Shown: positions 32,367-51,908 of the stretch, one piece after another
Layout: every line of letters begins with the position of its first letter
How positions within the stretch are numbered: the first letter of the stretch is position 1
Assembly (NCBI GenBank): GCA_030599585.1
Contig: JAUVNS010000006.1
Span: 236,430 to 300,429, forward strand
Length of the DNA stretch: 64,000 bases
Origin: Promethearchaeota archaeon
Lineage (GTDB): Archaea; Asgardarchaeota; Lokiarchaeia; Sigyniarchaeales; SOKP01
Direction: 5' to 3'
The notes under the pieces: model-generated
The model's input: only the letters and a program-made list of their open reading frames with translations
Databases searched by the model: none
What the model was told of the DNA's origin: nothing
Position numbers and translations under genes: made by a program

Positions 32367-32894
32367 CTATTCTTTTTTAAGATCAATTTTAGGAAGAATT
32401 CCATGGCTAATACAATAATACCCGGGACTGCGTTTTTTTGCAATTTCATTAATTTCAAGTAGTTTTTCCATAGGAGTGGCACTTTCAATAAATAATTCCA
32501 TCTGTAAATCATTAATAGGAGGATTATCAGAAAGACCTAAAGCTTTTGATATATCCATGGTAGCAGTACCTCTGATTTTAAAACTATTTAGTTGGATTCC
32601 TTCCATAGTTGCCCATTTAACAAAAGTAGCAGAATAACACGCCAAAAATCCACTAATGTAATATTGAACCGGATTAGGAGCAGTTCCCCCTCCACCTAAG
32701 ATGATTGTTTCATCTGTTTGAACAAGAATATCTCCTGCCTTCTCAGTTTTCAATTTAATCTCAAATTGGGGTCCAACTTGTTCATCTAATCTCCAAGTGC
32801 CTTCGATCTCTAATTTTTTGATGCTAGTAGAGGGATCCTTTTTAACGTTTTCTATAGTCTCTTTAAACACATCAACATTTAGTCTATTAGTCAT
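32367..32894 (-). CDS. OsmC/Ohr family protein, copy 1 (second Cys replaced by Ser)
   Basis: DE..LGGGGTAPNP...C, and KKRSP. Confidence 0.85.
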   Translation of the reverse strand: MTNRLNVDVFKETIENVKKDPSTSIKKLEIEGTWRLDEQVGPQFEIKLKTEKAGDILVQTDETIILGGGGTAPNPVQYYISGFLACYSATFVKWATMEGIQLNSFKIRGTATMDISKALGLSDNPPINDLQMELFIESATPMEKLLEINEIAKKRSPGYYCISHGILPKIDLKKE

Positions 32895-33997: not shown

Positions 33998-34525
33998 CTA
34001 TTCTTTTTTAATATCAATTATAGGAACAATTCCATGGCTAAGGCAATAATACCCGGGACAGCGTTTTTTTGCAATTTTATTAATTTCAAGTAGTTTTTCC
34101 ATAGGAGCGTCACTTTCGACAAATAATTCCATCCGTAAATCATTAATAGGAGGATTATCGGAAAGACCTAAAGCTGCGGATATATCCATGGTAGCAGTGC
34201 CTCTGATTTTAAAACTATTTAGCTGGATTCCTTCCATAGTTGCCCATTTAACAAAAGTAGCAGCATAACATGACAATAATCCACCAATGCAATATTGAAC
34301 AGGATTAGGTGCAGTTCCTCCGCCGCCTAAGATGATTGTTTCATCTGATTGAACAAGAATCTCTCCTGCCGTCTCAGTTTTAAATTTTGTCTCAAATTGG
34401 GGGCCTGTTTGTTCATCTAATCTCCAAGTGCCTTCGATCTCTAATTTTTTGATGCTAGTAGAGGGATTCTTTTTAACATTTTCAATTGTCTCTTTAAACA
34501 CATCAACATTTATTCTATTAATCAT
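33998..34525 (-). CDS. OsmC/Ohr family protein, copy 2
   Basis: Near-identical to copy 1; retains KKRCP. Confidence 0.88.
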   Translation of the reverse strand: MINRINVDVFKETIENVKKNPSTSIKKLEIEGTWRLDEQTGPQFETKFKTETAGEILVQSDETIILGGGGTAPNPVQYCIGGLLSCYAATFVKWATMEGIQLNSFKIRGTATMDISAALGLSDNPPINDLRMELFVESDAPMEKLLEINKIAKKRCPGYYCLSHGIVPIIDIKKE

Positions 34526-40508: not shown

Positions 40509-40721
40509 ATATCCCTGCTAACAATTCTCACATTTGGTTGCGACACTTCAGCGAAGGGTAGCGCCAGACTAGAAATACCTTTTAGGTCATTCACCGAAGG
40601 TTCCATGTCAAATGGGCTAAAATGTATCAGCGAACCGAAGTGAGTTGCGCGCAAACTGGTGATGTATGATAAGCAATTCTTCAACCACGGCGCAACACCG
40701 TAGCATTAAAGCCAAGGATAT
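40509..40721 (-). ncRNA. Retron-like msr-msd ncRNA, array unit 1 (most distal from RT)
   Basis: Terminal IR ATATCCCTG (40509-17) / CAAGGATAT (40713-21); candidate branch G at 40712; hairpin 40687-40701; long hairpin 40575-40627 with loop CCGAAGGTTCCAT; homologous to units 2 and 3. Confidence 0.75.
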
Positions 40722-40811
40722 TTTTATTGATTACTGATATTGAACGCCTTTACTTATGAATTTATTTATTTTTTTTTTTATATTCCAATCGCAATTAGAA
40801 AAATAGTCGTG

Positions 40812-40997
40812 ATCCCTGCTAACAATTCAAACATTTGGTTGTGACACTTCAGCAGAACGTAGTTAGTGGTACATTGAACCGAAGGATACATGTTTAAGGT
40901 ACCACTACCGTAGTGACGCGAATAGCGCGCAACCTGGTGGTGTATGATGGGCAAAATCTCAACTGTGGCGCAACACCACAGCATTAAAGCCAAGGAT
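40812..40997 (-). ncRNA. Retron-like msr-msd ncRNA, array unit 2
   Basis: Terminal IR ATCCCTG / CAAGGAT; candidate branch G at 40990; hairpin CTGTGG..CCACAG 40963-81; long hairpin TAGTGGTAC..GTACCACTA 40864-40907 with loop CCGAAGGATACAT. Confidence 0.78.
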
Positions 40998-41051
40998 TCT
41001 AACTTTAAAATTTTCTTCTTTATTGCCATAAATATTTTAGCGATTATAACC

Positions 41052-41237
41052 TCTCTGCTAACAATTCTCACATTGGGTTGTGACACTTCAGCAAAGTGGA
41101 GAACATGTGCTTCTTAACCGAAGGATACATATAACGAAGCACATGTACATGAAGCGGCGCGAATTGCGCACAACCTGGTGTCGTATGATTAGTAATTCCT
41201 CAACTACGGCGCAACGCCGGAGCATGAAAGCCAGAGA
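41052..41237 (-). ncRNA. Retron-like msr-msd ncRNA, array unit 3 (62 nt after the RT stop)
   Basis: Terminal IR TCTCTG / CAGAGA; candidate branch G at 41231; hairpin CGGCG-CAA-CGCCG 41207-19; perfect 11-bp stem ACATGTGCTTC / GAAGCACATGT 41103-41146 with loop CCGAAGGATACAT. Confidence 0.78.
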
Positions 41238-41299
41238 CTATTATAATCCTAAAAAATTTTTAGTATAAATCACCTCTAATCTTAGTATTTTAACTGAGT

Positions 41300-42764
41300 T
41301 TATTTTATAATCTTATTCGCTTCATTTATTAATTTTTGATATCTTTCAGAGTTTACACTTCTAACCCAAGATGTCATTCCTGCTATCTCATTTTTTTTTT
41401 CCTTTGGTATTTCTTTACTTGTTTTTAACAGGATATTAGCATTATGAATTGCTGCTCTATAATTTTTAATCCATTTACGTGGTAGTCCTAGTTCCGAATT
41501 ATTTAAAATGATTCCCGTAATTTTTTGTTGATTATTCTTTCTCAAGAAACGAGTTTTGGAATTGTTTATTTCAAAACCCTCTTCCTTTGTAATTTTATAA
41601 ATCAGACCGCAGAATCTTCCTAAATTCACTTCCTTTTGGTCTTTCAATGAAAAACTTAAATCGTCAGCATATCTCGAATAAGTAAGTCCAAATTTATCTG
41701 ATAATCCTTTTAATCTTTTATCTAATCTTTGACATATTATATTGGTAATCATAGGGCTTGCAGGTGAACCTTGTGGTAATATTCTTTTTGTAGTAGCGAC
41801 ATATTTGGTGGTTCCTCTTACTTCAAATTGCCAACCGCTCACAGTAAGTACAGAGCATGGAAAGGAGTGAGGAAATGTGACCAGAATATCCAAATGAATG
41901 AAACATACCCCGAACTCTTTCAAATGTAAGAGTTGGGAAAAAATCTTTTAGGTCCATGTTTAATATTAGAAAAGGCTGTTTAGGATGAGAGTTAGCTCCA
42001 GTTATCACAGACTTACCTTGAATAAATCCATGTGCATATTTTGAGGGAGGAATAATTGATAAAATTTTGTCAAGAATAATCCTCTGTGAGTTTTTTAATA
42101 AAGATTTTGGAGCAGCGATTGACCTCGTCCCTCCAGTTCTTTTAGGAATCTTATATCGATAATAATGATCTATGTCTACCACATCTCGGTGATAGGCAAG
42201 AAATCTAAGTTGCTTAAAATCGATATCGAGAAATCGATTCAGTTCATGTGCATCCTTTATAGTGGGAAGTTCGTTTTTCTTTAGCTTTTCTATATCTGTA
42301 TCAAATCTATAGAGCATTGATGAATAACCCTTCCCAATGAAAACAATTTCTTCTTTTTTTTTCTTTTGCCATGCTTCAGATCTTTCTTGTCTTTCTAACT
42401 CTTTTTGTCTTTTTCTCTCTTCACGCCGCTTAATTGATTCTAGCCACATTTCCTTAGCGATTTCTTTCCGAATCTTATCAATGTCATACGTTCCACCATG
42501 TTCTTTCTTAAGATCCATTAGTTTTTTTTTTATTTTGCGTTTACTTGTATACAGCTCCGTAATCTGCGTAATTAATTTATCTAAGTTATTCATTAATTTC
42601 TGTCTTTTCGTAAAATCCTCATTTGATTCGTTTTCTTGTTGATTATAGGGAGTTGGAAGATTTTTTGGCCAGAAACCATATTCTTGCATTTTCATAAAGG
42701 TAAATTGTTTTTTACCTAGTTGCTGTATTAACCTGCTATAATCACTTTTCGAGCTGTCAGTCAT
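41300..42764 (-). CDS. Retron-type reverse transcriptase with long N-terminal extension, split by a +1 frameshift at ~41825
   Basis: ORF 41823-42764 has IPKRTGGTRSIAAP, AHGF, region-X-like ITGANSH and DLKDFFP. ORF 41300-41923 has LPQGSPASP, YSRYADD and region-Y-like KITG. Removing one T gives a continuous ...CTYCERLAI-EVRGTTKYV... Confidence 0.9.
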
Positions 42765-44538
42765 CTACTCTCATAGCCTCCAATGACGATTCATCGTATC
42801 TTCTATTAGGAATAAGTGGTAATTCTAAATATGTAGAAGCATTAATGTATAAAGCTAAAATATGTTTGCAGGGAGCTGAAATATTTCTTGGACCACGTTT
42901 AAATGCTTTGCATCCACAATTAACCTTAACGATTTGTTTATCTTGATCAAGAGTTACCTCGGTATTAAATGTTTTATCTCGATACTGATATCTTCTACTT
43001 GTTGTTTGTGAAGAACTACTCTCAGCGATAGTTTCGAAATTCGCGGTTAATCTTAAATTGAACCTTTTCTCGGGTTTATTAATCTCATTCAATACATCTC
43101 TTTCTAATTGTGTAGTTTCATACAATTCTCTTGGTAATGGGATGTTTAAAAGTTGCCTATAACGGTAAACTTTACGGTTTAGGTCAAAATATGCCTCTCC
43201 TTTTCGAAATAAACTACCAATACTCGCTCTAATCTCTTGATCACTTGCACTTGATAATTCACTTTTAAGAGTTTCGAGTTCCATAACTCTATTTTTTTTT
43301 AATAAATTCCGCACGTTAGGATCTCCCTCTCCAATAAAACCGCCCATGATATTGAATGCTGTTCCTTTAACCCAATCGTTAGAAGACCATGAGGTAAATC
43401 CAATTGTCATATTTAAGAAGCCTAGATCCGCAACTAAAAAATGAGGCATTCCAAATCCAAATAGTTTTAATTTAAAGGATTTTGAGATCGGAATTATCTT
43501 TTCAACAATCAACCATCTTCTACGGCCCCAGATTCTCTCTATATGCTTTCTTTTTCCAGTATATATTGTAGATAATTCTAATTCCTTTTCCCATGGTTCA
43601 AATATTATCTTTACTCGTTTTTTAGGTTCAAAAACCCACTTCATTGCCCTAGGGCTTTTTCTGGCTTTATTTCGTCTTAAAAATGAACATATATCATATA
43701 AATCTACAGGAGTCAGTTCTATTTCAAATCCGTCTAAACTAGCAGCAGCAGATACTTGATTAAAACCCTTTATCCACGATTCGGGTAAATCTATTTTCTT
43801 TTCCACGTATTCAGGAGTAACCCCTGAATCTACAGTAATTCCTTCAGGATTAATTGACAATTCAACTTCATTATACGTTCGAAACCTCTCCATCTCTTTT
43901 GCGAGTTTTATAGAGAAATCTACATTAGTAGTCCCTAATTTAGGAGTTCCTTTAATTTCAAACTCATCCATTTTCACAGCTAGACATCCATATACTGACT
44001 CATCTAAAGAAAATGCTTCAAAGGAAACTTGATCGGGATGAACTGTTATTACAGGATCTAAAACATACCAGAGAGCCTGATCTCTATTGCGGATATAATG
44101 CCAAAATTGGCTCTCAATTTTATTATAATTCTGCCATATTCCCATATCATTAACTTTACTTTTCAAGCTCATGATTTTAGAGCGGATTTCTAAGATGTTT
44201 TTATCTACATCATCAAGTTGGACTTTTAACGTATCCATATCACCTTGTAATTCCTTCCTCCAAGTTTTTAGAAAACCTTCTTTATGAATCATCCGTTTTT
44301 CAATCTCTTGATTAAACCAGGCAAAAAAATCGCCATAATCTTTTTTCCTAATTCTTGAATCTGATATTACAATCTCTCTTAACATTAACATAGCATCTCT
44401 AAAAATTAATGGGTGCTTCAATCTTCCTACAAATGATACTTTCTCATCTCTAGTAAGATCGGGACTTAGACCGAGAGTTATATAATCCTCAGATTGAAGG
44501 CAAACGGATGGACTTGTATACTGATAACTAATTTCCAT
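42757..44538 (-). CDS. SWIM zinc-finger protein (retron-associated type)
   Basis: C-terminal CGC...PCKH SWIM motif; LDPVITVHPDQVSFEAFSLDES.Y, GTTNVDFS and EKKIDLPESWIKGF blocks; overlaps the RT start by 8 nt. Confidence 0.85.
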   Translation of the reverse strand: MEISYQYTSPSVCLQSEDYITLGLSPDLTRDEKVSFVGRLKHPLIFRDAMLMLREIVISDSRIRKKDYGDFFAWFNQEIEKRMIHKEGFLKTWRKELQGDMDTLKVQLDDVDKNILEIRSKIMSLKSKVNDMGIWQNYNKIESQFWHYIRNRDQALWYVLDPVITVHPDQVSFEAFSLDESVYGCLAVKMDEFEIKGTPKLGTTNVDFSIKLAKEMERFRTYNEVELSINPEGITVDSGVTPEYVEKKIDLPESWIKGFNQVSAAASLDGFEIELTPVDLYDICSFLRRNKARKSPRAMKWVFEPKKRVKIIFEPWEKELELSTIYTGKRKHIERIWGRRRWLIVEKIIPISKSFKLKLFGFGMPHFLVADLGFLNMTIGFTSWSSNDWVKGTAFNIMGGFIGEGDPNVRNLLKKNRVMELETLKSELSSASDQEIRASIGSLFRKGEAYFDLNRKVYRYRQLLNIPLPRELYETTQLERDVLNEINKPEKRFNLRLTANFETIAESSSSQTTSRRYQYRDKTFNTEVTLDQDKQIVKVNCGCKAFKRGPRNISAPCKHILALYINASTYLELPLIPNRRYDESSLEAMRVDD

Positions 44539-47502
44539 TTATATTACCTCCATTTTTATTTTAGCAAGAGCGACCAAGGCTCTTTCAGAATCTTTAATTA
44601 TATTGGATCCTCCGATTTCAAGGAGAATTTCTTCAATAATATCACAGTTTTCTTTATTTCTAAAAACAAACTCGGGAATGAGTTGATAAATCTTATCTTT
44701 ACTTTTGGATTTGAGATTAGGTAAAAATATAAGCGTTTTGATATAATATAAAAAGATTTCACTATTTCCATTTCCTAAATCATCTAAAATCCTATCAATC
44801 TTTTCCGAGATATATGACTTGATATCATGAGAAGCGTGTTCTAACATTTGGATAATTATGTTTTTAGGTAATTTTTCTCCATATATCTCGTCTAACTTGT
44901 TTAATGCATAAGTAATTACTTTTTTTTCAGGAGAATCAATAAGAATTGATAACGTTCTATTAAAAGCTTCTTTAGGTAAACCCTCAAAAACATTAATTGC
45001 GATCTCATTAAGGGTGGCTATTTCAGACTCAAACATTAATTGGAGGGTAGTGTACCGCTCCTTTACTTGATGAGTATTTCTTCTAACCATCTCTATCAAC
45101 GTTCTAACCATTTCTGGCGGCCCTATTTCTAATATTTCTAGAATTTCACTATCAGAGGGCAACAATTTTGTTGAAAGCGCTCTTAGCATATAAAGGATGA
45201 CCATTGAAGGAATTTTAGCTGAAAAATCAATTTCTATTTCCTTAATAATCATCAGTAAATCATCATAAGCAACTGAGAAGATAAGATTCTGCAAATAATC
45301 TGAAGTCCATTCCGGAAGTGTGGACTCATGTATCAGTAGATCTATTATTAAATTTAATAATTTAGCGCGTTCATTCTGTGGTATCTCATTTACTTTGTTG
45401 GTTGATTTATTTAACTGATCTAAGATTTCTTCCGGTAATTCAACTTGTTTCTTAAAGAATGAGTAAATCTTAGCAATTAATGCTTCTACAAATTTAAAAT
45501 AGTCAATTCCCTTTAATTCTCTTATTCGTTCTATTATAAATTCAAACCAATTCTCTACATTATTAAGTAAAAGCAAATCTACAACCATCTCAGGAGTGAT
45601 CTTTCCTTTTGTTCTATCAAAATACGCCCATGCTTGTTCATGCAACGTATTATCAGAACATTCCATAAGAGCAAACATTAAATTATGATCAAATGTGTCA
45701 GCTTTTGTTAGTAAATTTGTTAATTTTTCTCTAAATAGATTTCTTAATCTAACATGCTTTGATAAAGAAAGTTCTACCATCAGTTTGGGGGGTAATTTTC
45801 CTAAAATGTTATCTAGGTCAGAACGAGCATTTATTAAATTAAAGCAGAAATCTAATACGTAATGGACCTCACTTTCGGTTGCGATTTCTAAAACATCAGT
45901 GAAATATTTGTTCCAGAGTTCTAACTTCTTTTGATAGGTGTCAGCGGCTCTAATAGATTTAAAATCGATACTATCAATTCGTGGGGTATCACGATAATAA
46001 GAATAATGACGGGATCTAGAGCGGATACGTGGTGCAGTAGTGTAGTATCTTAGAATCTCATTAATACTATCGGGAATTTGTCGGCCCGAAACTAAATCAT
46101 AAGGCTTATAATTACTAAAAAAAGTTTTCACTGCTAGAATAAATAAATGCTCATCCCCTCGTGCTAATGAATCAAGAGTTCTTCTCACATATCGATGAAT
46201 ATAGTTGTAAAACCCTTGATAACCGCTTGCGAGCATAAAATAGTAGAATTTTGGAGTATCAATGTAGTAAGCAAGGGTTCCGAGTAGATCAGGAGCTTTG
46301 TAGACCTCCGCTTCTTGGATTAGATTCTTAAACATAATGTGATTAAGTCTGAAACCATCACTTATATGGCTAGGGCTAAATTTTAATGTAGGACCGATTG
46401 CTCCCCATTCCTGATCCCCCCACTTTTTTACGTAATCATTATAAGAAGTATTTTTTTCTCGTTTCTCTAAATAACGCCCAGCTCTTCCTCTTGGTTTATT
46501 ACCATGTACAGGGATTAAATCAATTTTAGCAACAATATTTGTAATTTCTTTAATCCTATTTTCTTTTAAAGTAGAATCAATTGAGTTAAGGTATATTTGA
46601 GCACATCTCTTTACACCTTCAGCAAATTTAGGCTCGGACCATCTAAATGTGAAATTAACTATTTTACTTGCTTCTTCTTTTAAAATGGGATTTTTTATTT
46701 TAGCTAACTCTAAGAACAAACCAGATACAACACCCTCACCCCCAATTTCTACTATTTTTTCATATATTGATTTTGGAGGTTTTTTTTCAACAAGATTTCT
46801 TAGGAATTTCTTTCTATTATAGAGACTTTGATTTGACATCAACTCAACGATTAAGTCTAAAAATACCTCGTCAGTTTTACTTAATTTTAATATTTCATTA
46901 GGATCCTTAGCAACCTTAAATTCTCCATTAAATACATCCCCCCTAATTTTATTTACTTTATCACGATAACTTAATTCTTTAAAATAAGGGAGAAAGAATT
47001 GATTTTCAGGACTCAAATTAATAAAGGAAGCTGCTTCTTTCAACTGTATTTCTCTGTAATATCCATGTCTTTGACTCTTATATTGTTTATATAAGCCTTT
47101 TCGATTTACTAGATACGAACGCCCTTTTACACGGCTTCTAGTACTATAATCATAATGTGATGGAGTGAGTAATTTTAAATCTAAAAATGGGGGTAAATGT
47201 TCGTGATTTCCTTGAAGAATAGTATATCCAACATAGTTTACGTCCTCACTCAATAAATTATATTCACCAGGACTTATTTCTGGCTTTAATTCTTCTTTTA
47301 AAGAATCATGATATTTCTCAATATCTTCTTGTGTAATTGTGATTCTACTACCTGAATCAATTTCGTGTGGACCAAAAAGTATAGCGAAACTGGGATTCAT
47401 TTTCTTATCCCAGCCCCAAAGTACTAATTTTCTAGTTGGATTATTTTGTTTTCCCCATCTTCGTCTTATTTGTTGAACTTTATCTATTACTGAATCATCC
47501 AT
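44539..47502 (-). CDS. Large alpha-helical (HEAT/ARM-like) repeat protein
   Basis: 987 aa with a Leu/Glu-rich amphipathic helical C-terminal half (e.g. LIDSPEKKV, MLEHASHDIK); stop codon abuts the SWIM start. Confidence 0.7.
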   Translation of the reverse strand: MDDSVIDKVQQIRRRWGKQNNPTRKLVLWGWDKKMNPSFAILFGPHEIDSGSRITITQEDIEKYHDSLKEELKPEISPGEYNLLSEDVNYVGYTILQGNHEHLPPFLDLKLLTPSHYDYSTRSRVKGRSYLVNRKGLYKQYKSQRHGYYREIQLKEAASFINLSPENQFFLPYFKELSYRDKVNKIRGDVFNGEFKVAKDPNEILKLSKTDEVFLDLIVELMSNQSLYNRKKFLRNLVEKKPPKSIYEKIVEIGGEGVVSGLFLELAKIKNPILKEEASKIVNFTFRWSEPKFAEGVKRCAQIYLNSIDSTLKENRIKEITNIVAKIDLIPVHGNKPRGRAGRYLEKREKNTSYNDYVKKWGDQEWGAIGPTLKFSPSHISDGFRLNHIMFKNLIQEAEVYKAPDLLGTLAYYIDTPKFYYFMLASGYQGFYNYIHRYVRRTLDSLARGDEHLFILAVKTFFSNYKPYDLVSGRQIPDSINEILRYYTTAPRIRSRSRHYSYYRDTPRIDSIDFKSIRAADTYQKKLELWNKYFTDVLEIATESEVHYVLDFCFNLINARSDLDNILGKLPPKLMVELSLSKHVRLRNLFREKLTNLLTKADTFDHNLMFALMECSDNTLHEQAWAYFDRTKGKITPEMVVDLLLLNNVENWFEFIIERIRELKGIDYFKFVEALIAKIYSFFKKQVELPEEILDQLNKSTNKVNEIPQNERAKLLNLIIDLLIHESTLPEWTSDYLQNLIFSVAYDDLLMIIKEIEIDFSAKIPSMVILYMLRALSTKLLPSDSEILEILEIGPPEMVRTLIEMVRRNTHQVKERYTTLQLMFESEIATLNEIAINVFEGLPKEAFNRTLSILIDSPEKKVITYALNKLDEIYGEKLPKNIIIQMLEHASHDIKSYISEKIDRILDDLGNGNSEIFLYYIKTLIFLPNLKSKSKDKIYQLIPEFVFRNKENCDIIEEILLEIGGSNIIKDSERALVALAKIKMEVI

Positions 47503-47610: not shown

Positions 47611-48159
47611 TTAAATTCTGACTCTTTTTTCTTGTGAAATGTAATTAAAATTATTTGGCAGCTTGTTCATTATAATTTGTAATTCTTCAAAAGAGATAGG
47701 ATATAATTTATTATTGTCAACTCCAATATCATATTGTTTACCAACGGATTTGAGTTTACCGTGCGAATGACCATATAATTGCCACGCATTAAAATGACTT
47801 TTATTCCAAACCCGCATAGCATAATGGCAAAGAGTAATTGATTGACCTTCAATTTTAATATCTTTAATACGAGACATTGAAGCACAATATTGCTCTGCAA
47901 TTCTTATAACATCACTACTATCATGATTCCCGATAATAAAATGAATTTCAATATTTTTAAATTTTTCAAAAAAAAAATTGGCTTTTTGCTCGTTAAAGGT
48001 CAAATCTCCAAGAATGTATAACACATCCCCAGGAGTAACCTTTTCTTCAAGATTTTTTATTAATACCCTATCCATCTCTTGAATATCCTCAAATGGACGA
48101 CCAGTATATTTGATAATATTTTTATGAGAAAGATGATAGTCAGCTGTAAACCAAATCAA
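47611..48159 (-). CDS. Calcineurin-like metallophosphoesterase
   Basis: DxH (ADYH), GD, GNHD, HY and GHSH motifs. Confidence 0.92.
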   Translation of the reverse strand: MIWFTADYHLSHKNIIKYTGRPFEDIQEMDRVLIKNLEEKVTPGDVLYILGDLTFNEQKANFFFEKFKNIEIHFIIGNHDSSDVIRIAEQYCASMSRIKDIKIEGQSITLCHYAMRVWNKSHFNAWQLYGHSHGKLKSVGKQYDIGVDNNKLYPISFEELQIIMNKLPNNFNYISQEKRVRI

Positions 48160-48449: not shown

Positions 48450-49226
48450 TTGTTTATAGGTGAAAAAGGGAAGATTATGTTTTGTACAGAATGTGGATAT
48501 AAGGCAATTAAAGGAGATTCAATTTGTAGATATTGTGGAACTCCTTTGAAAATTTCTACAAAAAAAAACGGATATCCAGTTTCATTTACTAATGGTGGAA
48601 TTACATTTAGCTTTAAAACAAATAGTGCTTATCAATTATTTCAAAAAAGTCAAGAATGTTTAACTAGAAAGGATTTTAATGGTTCTCTAGAAATTTTAAA
48701 TAGCGTGTTGAGTAGTGAACCACGAAACCCAACTATACTTTCTCAGATAGGAATAACGTATTTTCTTCTCCGTAATTTCGACAAAGGAGTGGAGTATTGT
48801 AAAAAAGCAATTGAACAGGATTCAACTCAAATTTTACCATTAGAAACTCTCATGGAAGTATACGTAATTGAAGGAAAACCAGAAAAAGTTCAACATTGCT
48901 TTGAAAATTTAAAATCTTTAGGTGCAAAATACGTTTATGTTTTAAATGTAAGAGCGTCCAATTGTTTTAAAGATCAAAAACCTGAATTAGCCATAAATTG
49001 GTGGAAGAAAGCCCTAATTTTTGATCCTTTGAATCAAGAAATTATTTCAAAAGTTAATGCAGTTGCCGAACAAGATTTTATGGACAAACATCTTAAAAAA
49101 TTCGATAACGATTATTCAAAAGCATTAGAATTTTATAAACAAAAGTTAGAAAAGGATCCTAACGATGATTTCTATAAAAGAATGGTTTTATGGGCTGAGA
49201 AACGATCGTTAGGGTTAGAATATTAA
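48450..49226 (+). CDS. Zinc-ribbon plus TPR protein
   Basis: FCTECG...CRYCG followed by TPRs; start probably ATG 48477. Confidence 0.8.
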   Translation: MFIGEKGKIMFCTECGYKAIKGDSICRYCGTPLKISTKKNGYPVSFTNGGITFSFKTNSAYQLFQKSQECLTRKDFNGSLEILNSVLSSEPRNPTILSQIGITYFLLRNFDKGVEYCKKAIEQDSTQILPLETLMEVYVIEGKPEKVQHCFENLKSLGAKYVYVLNVRASNCFKDQKPELAINWWKKALIFDPLNQEIISKVNAVAEQDFMDKHLKKFDNDYSKALEFYKQKLEKDPNDDFYKRMVLWAEKRSLGLEY

Positions 49227-49244
49227 CATTACTACAAAAAAAAG

Positions 49245-51908
49245 GTGGTTTTACTAATTAATACCCATAATTATATGGAAAACTTTCTCAAAGCGATGGA
49301 ACTTGATAGAATGGGAAAATGGGAAGAAGCTCTGGTATATTACGACAAAACTTTAGAATTAAACCCCAATTTTCCCGATGGGTGGGCAGGTAAAGGTTTA
49401 TTGCTTGGAAAACTAAAAAGGGATGAAGAAGAGATTGAATGTTTAGAGAAAGCACTAGATATTGACCCAAATTCAGCTATGATATGGACAATGAAGGGCG
49501 CTGCTTTATTAAAAGTGGGGAGATTTGAAGAATCACTTAAATGTCAACAAAATGCTTTAAATATTGAATCGAATTCATCTATAGCTTGGCTTGGAAAGGG
49601 ATTAGCTTTCTTTGAGTTAAAAAAATTCAATGAAGCAATTGAATGTTTCAATAAAACTTTGGAGTTAGAGCCACATAATAACATGGCTCAAAATAAAAAG
49701 ATACACGCTATGCAATTGATTGGCAGAACTGAAGATCTTGAAAAAATATATGAGGAGACTTTAGTAAAAGATCCTAACTCTATTGAAGCTTTAACTGGAA
49801 AAGCTATTTCGCTTGCAAAGCATGGGAATTATGAGGAGGCAATCAATCTTTTTGATAAAGTTATACATATTGAACCAAATAACATATCCTCCTTAATGAA
49901 TAAAGGCATAATATTAAACGAATTCAGAAGATTTGATGAATCTTTAGTTATGTTTGAGAAAATTTTGAGTTTAAGTCCTAAACTTCCAAGAGCATTACTG
50001 GGAAAAGCCATGGCACTTGATGGGCTTGGAAAGTTTGAAATGTCATTAAACTTTGTAAATAAAGCTTTAGACCTTGATCCAAACGATCGCTTGATTTGGA
50101 TCCAAAAGGGGATCGCCTTATTAAAAAACAAGAAGCCTAATGAAGCTCTCGATTTGTTTAATAAAGTTTTAGAAGAACATCCATTAGACGCCTTAAGTTG
50201 GCATTATAAAGGGATAACGCTTCGAACTATTAAAAAATTTAATGAGGCAAGTGATTGTTTCACAAAAGCTCTGGAGATTGATCCTCGATTAGAAATGGCA
50301 TTAGCGGGAAAAGGTGCTCTAGAGGCAGAACTTGGAAATTTGGAAGAAGCAATTGTGTACTTTGATAAAGCAATACAAATCAAGCCTCTATCCATCCTTA
50401 ATTTTCTGAATAAAGCAGATATATTAACTCGATTAAACAGATATGAAGAAGCGGTGACAACCTATGATAGAGCCTTGAAAATAAACCCAAATCTAGTTGA
50501 TGCTTTATTTCAAAAAGGAAAATTACAGTATAATCTCAATCAATGGGAAAACGCTCTCGTTTGTTTTGATCATTGTTTAAAATTAAGCCCAAATGAGGGA
50601 ACCTTTTTAGATCATAAATGTGCTACGCTAAACCAGCTAAAAAGATATAAAGAAGCTTTAGAGTTCAGTGAAAGAGCACTGGAATTAAATCCAATATCTG
50701 TAGATGCGTTAATAAGCAAAGCTATTGCATTAGGGGAGTTGGATAGGCAAGAAGAAGCAATTCAGTATTTTGACAAAGCTATTGAATTGGATCCTAAATC
50801 TTTAAATGCTTGGTATAATAAGGGGTCTTTATTAGCAAAGTTGGGAAAATATGAAGAAGGTCAAGAGTGTTTTAATCAAGCTCTTAAAATAGATCCAAAT
50901 TATATGCCAGCAAAACATAATATGGGGGTCATGCTTCAAGCCCTTGATAAACCGGATGATTCGTTAAAGTATTTTGACGATGTGCTTGATGACAATCCTG
51001 AATTTTTTGAGGGCTGGCATAATAAAGCTAACACATTCATGCAACTTGGGAAATTTAAGGAAGCAATAGAGTGCCTCGACAAAGCTCTAGAGATCGCCCC
51101 AGATGAAGCTCAAATCTGGTCAAGCAAAGGTATTGCATACGATAGAATGGGTGATCCAGAAAAAGCTCTTATATACCTTAATAAAGCTTTAGATTTAAAC
51201 CCGAAATCTGCAAATGCTTGGCACAACGCAGGAGCAGTGTTAGAATCTTTGGGGAGAACTAAAGACGCAACCGAATGCTACGACAAAGCCTTAGCTATCA
51301 ACCCTAATTATCAAGACGATCCACAAACTACTTCACTTGAATTTTTAAAACCAAAATACGCTGAAGATATCCCGGAGTATTACGATCCATCTTTAAATAT
51401 TCATCCCATTGCCAAAGCCTGGAAATTTAAGGGGTTCAATTTAATTAGAAGTAAAGATTACGAAGAAGCACTAAATAGCTTTGAAAAGGCACTAGAAATA
51501 AACGATTACTATGATAAGGCATGGGAGGGTAAAGGTATTGTTTTTCAACATTTAAATGAGCTTGAAAATGCAATGGAATGTTTTAATAAGGCAATTAGAA
51601 TCAATCCAAATAATATTAAAGCAGCACACTTTAAAGCAACAATCTTAGAGAAATCTGATCAAGTGAGCGAAGCAAAAAACCTATATAATGAAATACTTGA
51701 AAAAGATCCTAATAATGCCGATTCTTGGGTTAACAAAGGTAAAATATTATTTAATGAAGAAAATTATTCGGAAGCGCTTGAATCTTTTAAAAAAGCCACA
51801 CAAATCGATCCACGTTCAAATACAGCTTGGCATTATTTAGGAACTATATATGAAATGAAGGGAGAATACAAAAAAGCTGAAGATAGTTTTTCTAAAATGT
51901 CACGATAA
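49245..51908 (+). CDS. All-TPR scaffold protein (over 20 repeats)
   Basis: Canonical 34-aa W..KG..L..LG..EEA..FDKAL..P repeats throughout. Confidence 0.92.
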   Translation: MVLLINTHNYMENFLKAMELDRMGKWEEALVYYDKTLELNPNFPDGWAGKGLLLGKLKRDEEEIECLEKALDIDPNSAMIWTMKGAALLKVGRFEESLKCQQNALNIESNSSIAWLGKGLAFFELKKFNEAIECFNKTLELEPHNNMAQNKKIHAMQLIGRTEDLEKIYEETLVKDPNSIEALTGKAISLAKHGNYEEAINLFDKVIHIEPNNISSLMNKGIILNEFRRFDESLVMFEKILSLSPKLPRALLGKAMALDGLGKFEMSLNFVNKALDLDPNDRLIWIQKGIALLKNKKPNEALDLFNKVLEEHPLDALSWHYKGITLRTIKKFNEASDCFTKALEIDPRLEMALAGKGALEAELGNLEEAIVYFDKAIQIKPLSILNFLNKADILTRLNRYEEAVTTYDRALKINPNLVDALFQKGKLQYNLNQWENALVCFDHCLKLSPNEGTFLDHKCATLNQLKRYKEALEFSERALELNPISVDALISKAIALGELDRQEEAIQYFDKAIELDPKSLNAWYNKGSLLAKLGKYEEGQECFNQALKIDPNYMPAKHNMGVMLQALDKPDDSLKYFDDVLDDNPEFFEGWHNKANTFMQLGKFKEAIECLDKALEIAPDEAQIWSSKGIAYDRMGDPEKALIYLNKALDLNPKSANAWHNAGAVLESLGRTKDATECYDKALAINPNYQDDPQTTSLEFLKPKYAEDIPEYYDPSLNIHPIAKAWKFKGFNLIRSKDYEEALNSFEKALEINDYYDKAWEGKGIVFQHLNELENAMECFNKAIRINPNNIKAAHFKATILEKSDQVSEAKNLYNEILEKDPNNADSWVNKGKILFNEENYSEALESFKKATQIDPRSNTAWHYLGTIYEMKGEYKKAEDSFSKMSR

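Follow-up and report, generated by a model that had tools for sequence, protein, structure and literature searches.

The window, a 64,000-nucleotide stretch of one contig from a Promethearchaeota archaeon genome, carries a tightly coupled operon in which genes for a 987-aa protein, a SWIM protein, and a reverse transcriptase (RT) are followed by three template RNA units, all on one strand. Together they make up a type XIII retron of variant layout. The RT gene (41300..42764, minus strand) is split by one extra T in TTT 41825–41827, and its two halves score best to the PADLOC model RT_XIII (E = 5.5e-82 and 1e-63). Owing to this apparent +1 frameshift, the window assembly has no intact RT reading frame and its copy of the retron may be dead. 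The one Logan contig that matches the window exactly stops at 42282, short of the frameshift. Eight JGI contigs from a 97%-identical strain, one of them from JGI 3300033155, have an intact 487-aa RT, and the same three units are present in all six of its JGI contigs that extend far enough; small deletions and duplications in units 2 and 3 of these contigs differ in every assembly and were dismissed as assembly artefacts. The RT core reads YADD in the alignment. The subclade to which the RT belongs has GAxxH in region X and ITG in region Y, the same columns being NAxxH and VTG in bacterial and some close homologs. This subclade has 100% support among SWIM-linked RTs in a midpoint-rooted tree that contains neither Mx162 nor an outgroup and in which long branches attract.

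The SWIM_XIII protein (42757..44538, minus strand, 593 aa; SWIM_XIII, E = 3e-169) contains a DEDE-type acidic motif (D161, D169, E174, D207, E246) and a C-terminal CxC..CxH finger. D161, E174, D207, and C557 are invariant, and D169, E246, C541, C543, and H559 are at least 90% conserved. In a structural model of the protein (pLDDT 81.9), about 250 residues align with PCNA sliding clamps (Foldseek E ~6e-8, target TM 0.55–0.63), and the core is predicted to be PCNA-like. The first gene of the operon (44539..47502, minus strand) encodes the 987-aa protein, whose matches to WGR_XIII (E = 2e-15) and HEAT-ARM_XIII (E = 5e-6) are partial and weak, and this partner co-occurs in close loci. At three close Asgard-type loci (L163:236-4171, L144:3798-8822, and L147:9879-14069) the HEAT-like partner is extended at its N terminus by a long leucine-rich-repeat region (LRR_14, E = 1e-30 to 1e-47) that the window's copy lacks and that is possibly a swappable sensor. 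A metallophosphoesterase gene upstream of the operon (47611..48159, minus strand) is probably not a core part of the system; among the other genomes checked, G152 alone has it close to the operon, and there on the opposite side. Beyond it, two genes for TPR-repeat proteins of 258 and 887 aa (48450–51908) are divergent from the operon, and this cluster differs in the 97%-identical strain.

Named type XIII retrons belong to RT clade 10 and include Retron-Mxa1/Mx162, Mxa2/Mx65, Sau1/Sa163, and Nex2/Ne144 (Mestre et al. 2020, PMC7736814). The archaeal system shares with them a long, N-terminally extended RT, a SWIM protein of cluster 114 with a DEDE motif, a HEAT/ARM-like partner, and RNAs with an a1/a2 stem, a branch G, a short msr hairpin, and a long msd stem. 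It differs in its archaeal host, in the placement of the RNAs after rather than before the RT, in having three templates with different hairpins for one RT, in its branch sequence (TGGC, as against TAGC, CAGC, or GAGC), and in the GAxxH of region X. Of 161 genomes of the class, 8 have the full combination of SWIM protein and RT; the 41 other genomes of the genus all lack it. Three metagenome loci (L166, L167, and L168) have RTs at 51–53% identity and a SWIM partner, with no unit matching the RNA model.

The units begin approximately 62 nt after the RT stop codon. Unit 3, nearest the RT, occupies 41052..41238 (187 nt, minus strand), with a1 at 41237–41232, the branch G at 41231, the msr hairpin at 41223–41203, a variable msd hairpin at about 41153–41098, a predicted first template A at 41059, and a2 at 41057–41052. 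The corresponding elements of unit 2 (40812..40997, 186 nt, minus strand) are a1 at 40997–40991, G 40990, the msr hairpin at 40982–40962, the variable hairpin at about 40912–40859, A 40820, and a2 at 40818–40812. Unit 1 (40511..40719, 209 nt, minus strand) has a longer variable hairpin (about 40634–40558), with a1 at 40719–40713, G 40712, the msr hairpin at 40704–40684, A 40519, and a2 at 40517–40511. Each RNA thus combines an a1/a2 terminal stem, an msr hairpin, and a long msd stem beside an RT gene. The preliminary description of this DNA, which had recognized three repeat units, gave their lengths as about 213, 186, and 186 nt, slightly too long for unit 1. The motifs that it placed at both unit ends are present (motif families D1 and D2), the terminal arms of all three units pair, and its coordinates for the candidate branch G (40712, 40990, and 41231) are exact. 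On the plus strand the terminal stem of units 1 and 2 contains a C·A mismatch that becomes a U·G wobble on the minus strand, which argues that the RNA is read from the minus strand, the strand of the RT. Taken alone, single units fold weakly (z = –1.85, –1.07, and –2.93). A search of the units against Rfam, a collection that lacks the published type XIII ncRNA model, returned chance-level matches and no credible family, and a bacterial-type promoter and terminator scan of single units, ill-suited to archaea, gave nothing clear above chance.

The co-variation first described for the terminal repeats holds when homologs are added. When 17 full units drawn from 10 loci are aligned, covariation is seen in the terminal stem, the msr hairpin, and the lower msd stem; 87% of cells are paired, and 27 of 43 pairs have changes on both sides. 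None of 500 shuffles reached the observed pairing (slid controls, 33–51%), a count that does not translate into a p-value because the shuffles do not keep the phylogeny and the structure was derived from the same sequences. The bulged G (G14) directly follows a1 and is invariant, as are the flanking pairs G13–C210 and C15–G209 (all 17/17). The CU/AG pairing proposed to follow the G reduces to the single conserved C–G pair, since the next position is a U–A pair in only 8 of the 17 units and C·A in the other nine. The units by themselves do not tell which G of the GG is bulged. The RNA model also matches bacterial type XIII loci (L005–L007 and L017); there the sequence is TAGC (L006, L007) or GAGC (L017), with an A–U pair preceding the G, and the second G is therefore taken as the bulge, as originally proposed. 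TAGC and GAGC are among the branch contexts listed for validated retrons (PMC6868368). The type XIII operon, the bacterial register, and the fragment ends described below all support the original placement of the candidate priming G by a1/a2 repeats in the manner of retrons.

Within arrays, identity is high in the msr (0.91, reaching 100%) and the frame (0.85) and falls to 0.39 in the arms of the central hairpin. The msd hairpin thus differs in sequence from unit to unit but retains its shape, loop motif, and frame. The arms are almost purely Watson–Crick paired (238 pairs, with 3 G–U and 3 A–C), form stems of 11–17 bp in nearly every unit, and often have one bulge on the 5′ arm. A polarity of wobbles between an RNA half and a DNA half of the units was sought and not seen; the conserved helices favor the RNA strand and the variable arms are neutral. 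One to three units lie beside each close RT of the subclade for which a unit was found, with single units at G075, L161, and L165. Bacteroidota, Planctomycetota, and another Asgard order likewise have tandem type XIII templates. Three full-length solo units with intact a1/a2 (L148:320-502, L287 [G051:C419], and L288 [G152:C172]) have no RT on the sequence retrieved around them; they lie in genomes with the retron at another place and are possible trans-acting templates.

The units could be retron RNAs multiplied by neutral duplication and gene conversion, with one unit that matters and hairpin differences that are drift. This account concerns the purpose of the array and leaves the priming mechanism untouched. 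The existence of single-unit loci and the msr identity of up to 100%, which suggests homogenization, speak for it, but arms at 39% identity still keep their stems in nearly every unit, all three unit types have left cDNA-like copies, and the design is seen again in Bacteroidota, Planctomycetota, and another Asgard order. We regard it as a serious though somewhat unlikely explanation. No paper on a natural retron array or an Asgard retron was found in a literature search that covered few subscription journals. Engineered multitrons (10.1101/2023.07.17.549397) likewise provide several templates for one RT; they are synthetic, whereas each natural unit keeps its own msr, and the consulted part of that paper makes no mention of a natural array. 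A natural multi-template retron in which hairpin sequence is free is a lead for multiplex production of single-stranded DNA.

Retrons are treated as immobile bacterial defense systems. The main addition of this work, which also extends the preliminary description by the operon and the variable hairpin, is a fossil record of retron cDNA, in the form of dispersed copies, across an Asgard archaeal family. Nine other sites in the window's genome match the RNA model at E < 0.001, the best match on the reversed genome having E = 0.21. Five of the nine are 95–98% identical to unit 3 (contigs C32, C34, and C39) or unit 2 (C20 and C16), and a congener (G123, L112) holds a unit-1-type fragment at 87%. 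In this family retron cDNA evidently finds its way into genomes often: 21 of 41 congeners, all without the full system, and 16 genomes of other genera contain fragments, making some 38 genomes altogether, as detected through a conserved 3′ motif in related MAGs (8.9% contamination in that of the window). After removal of recognized shared insertions, 58 dispersed fragments remain. Most of the genomes that contain them lack the retron, an absence that may partly reflect MAG incompleteness. Several insertions are common to different genomes and have since diverged, which argues against assembly chimeras. Such fragments can date past gains and losses of the retron. Two sites in the window's genome (C9:328230-328503 and C12:31530-31710) contain concatenated or stuttered fragments of two unit types absent from the window's array, implying an earlier or unassembled retron. 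Fold-back fragments in L290 (G070:C8:4609-4708) and L230 (G129:C439) change strand either in the hairpin loop or where the msDNA starts.

Among fragments that reach model position 170, 42 of 43 end before a2, with one real exception; at the interior break rate, about 3.5% would be expected to end there. About half of these stop precisely at the A that precedes GCA, predicted to be the first template base, and all 19 full units continue at this point with GCA, the start of a2. The other ends cluster at model positions 130–148, 93–107, and 39–55, most long fragments starting at 39–55. Three fragments reach into the msr hairpin (positions 12, 20, and 26), and none of the dispersed fragments contains a1 or the branch G. 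The fragment ends thus indirectly place the cDNA start just inside a2 and its stop near the msr. Flanks after position 178 are not enriched in GCA; a GCA found there in L130 proved to be flanking sequence rather than a2, and an apparent start in the msr at position 17 in L195 proved to be the neighboring tRNA. In measurements on working retrons, the cDNA starts sharply and stops over a broad zone ahead of AT-rich sequence (10.1101/2024.01.25.577267). By analogy, the read-through of some fragments into the msr would fit RNase H-dependent termination (PMC8989520). An RNase H-like RVT_3 gene is present. On this evidence the predicted msDNA of unit 2 spans 40820..40951 (plus strand, approximately 130 nt) with its 5′ start at TAACAATT; both ends are placed from the pile-ups of fragment ends (model positions 178 and 39–55), and the far end is a window, not a point.

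End mapping already contradicts a reading of the units as a MITE-like or other DNA repeat family, with the terminal inverted repeats as transposon ends and the RT beside them by coincidence. Terminal inverted repeats, many dispersed copies, and two full-length solo units with no RT on the sequence retrieved around them (G051 C419 and G152 C172) would be expected of such a family. Yet it is exactly the terminal repeats that the dispersed copies lack (the one exception among 43 aside), the G–U wobbles give the units an RNA polarity, and full units track the type XIII RT, both solo units being in genomes that carry one. Retention of both terminal repeats together with target duplications, as in a MITE or non-autonomous IS, was not found, and we consider this origin extremely improbable. 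Read most simply, the dispersed fragments are copies of cDNA, and in that case they back the priming site as well as independent use of the units. The latter had been proposed in the form of independent self-priming templates. Independence gains support from the unit-2- and unit-3-type copies in the window's genome and the unit-1-type copy in a congener; self-priming requires the RT, which is frameshifted here.

Three junctions could be compared well with intact sites. On C20 the fragment, joined over GCG, has displaced most of a gene whose counterpart in G131 and whose paralog are complete; a 140-nt repeat beside it, at first considered an IS end, is the 3′ end of a truncated paralogous gene. 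On C34 the fragment truncates a gene that continues in three relatives and is joined over AA, and in G056 29 nt stand in place of 25 nt with 3-nt microhomology on both sides. No target-site duplication was seen at the compared sites, and Ku was not found. Searches for empty sites of the C22 and C39 fragments yielded nothing useful. Microhomology end joining has been demonstrated in the archaeon Saccharolobus islandicus (PMC12019639), where it is likewise Ku-independent, with short microhomology and small insertions or deletions; msDNA capture is not reported in the abstract of that study. Given replacement with microhomology, the lack of target duplications and of a detected Ku, and this archaeal precedent, capture of msDNA at DNA breaks by microhomology-type joining is the preferred reading.

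The same retron could instead have made the copies by target-primed reverse transcription, in which the RT sits at its usual start site but primes on a chromosomal 3′ end rather than the 2′-OH of the G, with cuts possibly made by its own DEDE/SWIM protein; it would then be a low-level retrotransposition machine. Retrotransposition with 5′ truncation leaves one precise end and a variable truncation at the other, which the precise a2-side end and variable opposite end resemble. Concatenated and fold-back copies (C9, C12, L120, L230, and G070) were found, and the DEDE motif of SWIM proteins was likened to transposases by Mestre et al. (PMC7736814). A second retron-like RT in the window's genome (382 aa; G000:C15:45005-46440, L131:7009-8440) is a further point in favor, since its RNA has left no clear dispersed copies there. 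Against target priming, the compared sites show replacement and microhomology without target-site duplication, and flanks after position 178 are not enriched in GCA. Also against it, dispersed copies are absent from ten further genomes with type XIII systems (nine bacterial and one Asgard), a pattern that points toward a factor of the host. We judge target priming quite unlikely, and the absence of copies from those ten genomes and of the C15 RNA suggests that both host and system may matter. It is tempting to speculate further that in this Asgard family the type XIII retron is a recurrent source of chromosomal insertions, its PCNA-like DEDE/SWIM protein cutting or binding breaks to which the RT complex delivers cDNA, either primed at the break or handed over as msDNA. 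Such a scheme seems rather unlikely; if true, it would amount to natural retron-driven retrotransposition or break-patching in archaeal relatives of eukaryotes, with the array supplying several patches.

Returning to capture of msDNA at breaks, the units are very probably complete msr-msd template RNAs of a single type XIII retron whose DNAs were made in vivo and captured at breaks, and the evidence that the retron worked in living cells is indirect but strong. Judging from retron biochemistry, the RT would bind the msr and prime from the 2′-OH of the bulged G. Copying would begin at the A immediately 5′ of the G-C-A in a2 and end in an AT-rich window that follows the msr hairpin; the three branched DNAs would differ from one another and measure about 130 nt, or about 150 nt in the case of unit 1. 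The fragments suggest that in living cells each of the three unit types gave rise to DNA, which microhomology-type end joining then inserted time and again at chromosome breaks in place of the local sequence, and that such insertions probably persist in genomes where the retron is no longer seen. In the weakest step, the RT-RNA-DNA complex might restrain the SWIM/HEAT effector until a virus disturbs the complex, and three hairpins might widen what is sensed. This putative defense role is modeled on other retron types, the literature searched containing no antiviral or other function for type XIII.

These findings revive a suggestion made in 1997 for a single species. In Nannocystis exedens (Lampson and Rice 1997, PMID 9157251, and Lampson et al. 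2002, PMID 12459273, both as cited in PMC6868368), msr/msd-like copies away from the RT were proposed to be retrotransposed, and its Ne144 is a type XIII member. That account, in the form cited, concerns one bacterial species; here there are about 58 independent sites in about 38 archaeal genomes, both cDNA ends are mapped, and the junctions replace host sequence. In this uncultured archaeal lineage the chromosomes thereby keep a record of how the retron was active; from the fragments one can read, with no culture, where the cDNA starts, the window in which it stops, and that several templates are used.

Some further features were noted. The second retron-like RT on C15 is followed by a structured RNA, a RadA paralog, and a phosphoesterase. 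At G000:C22:60680-61948 (L139:1681-2949) a 48-nt msd fragment lies in frame within a 422-aa ORF, for which a search of the genus found no homolog. Fragments lie beside tRNA-like genes in L195, L185, and L227 (G132, G145, and G121) and at G000:C24:356025, the first being common to three genomes. Elsewhere in the window, two paralogous 175-aa genes, OsmC-like by appearance, are 1.6 kb apart (32367–32894 and 33998–34525).
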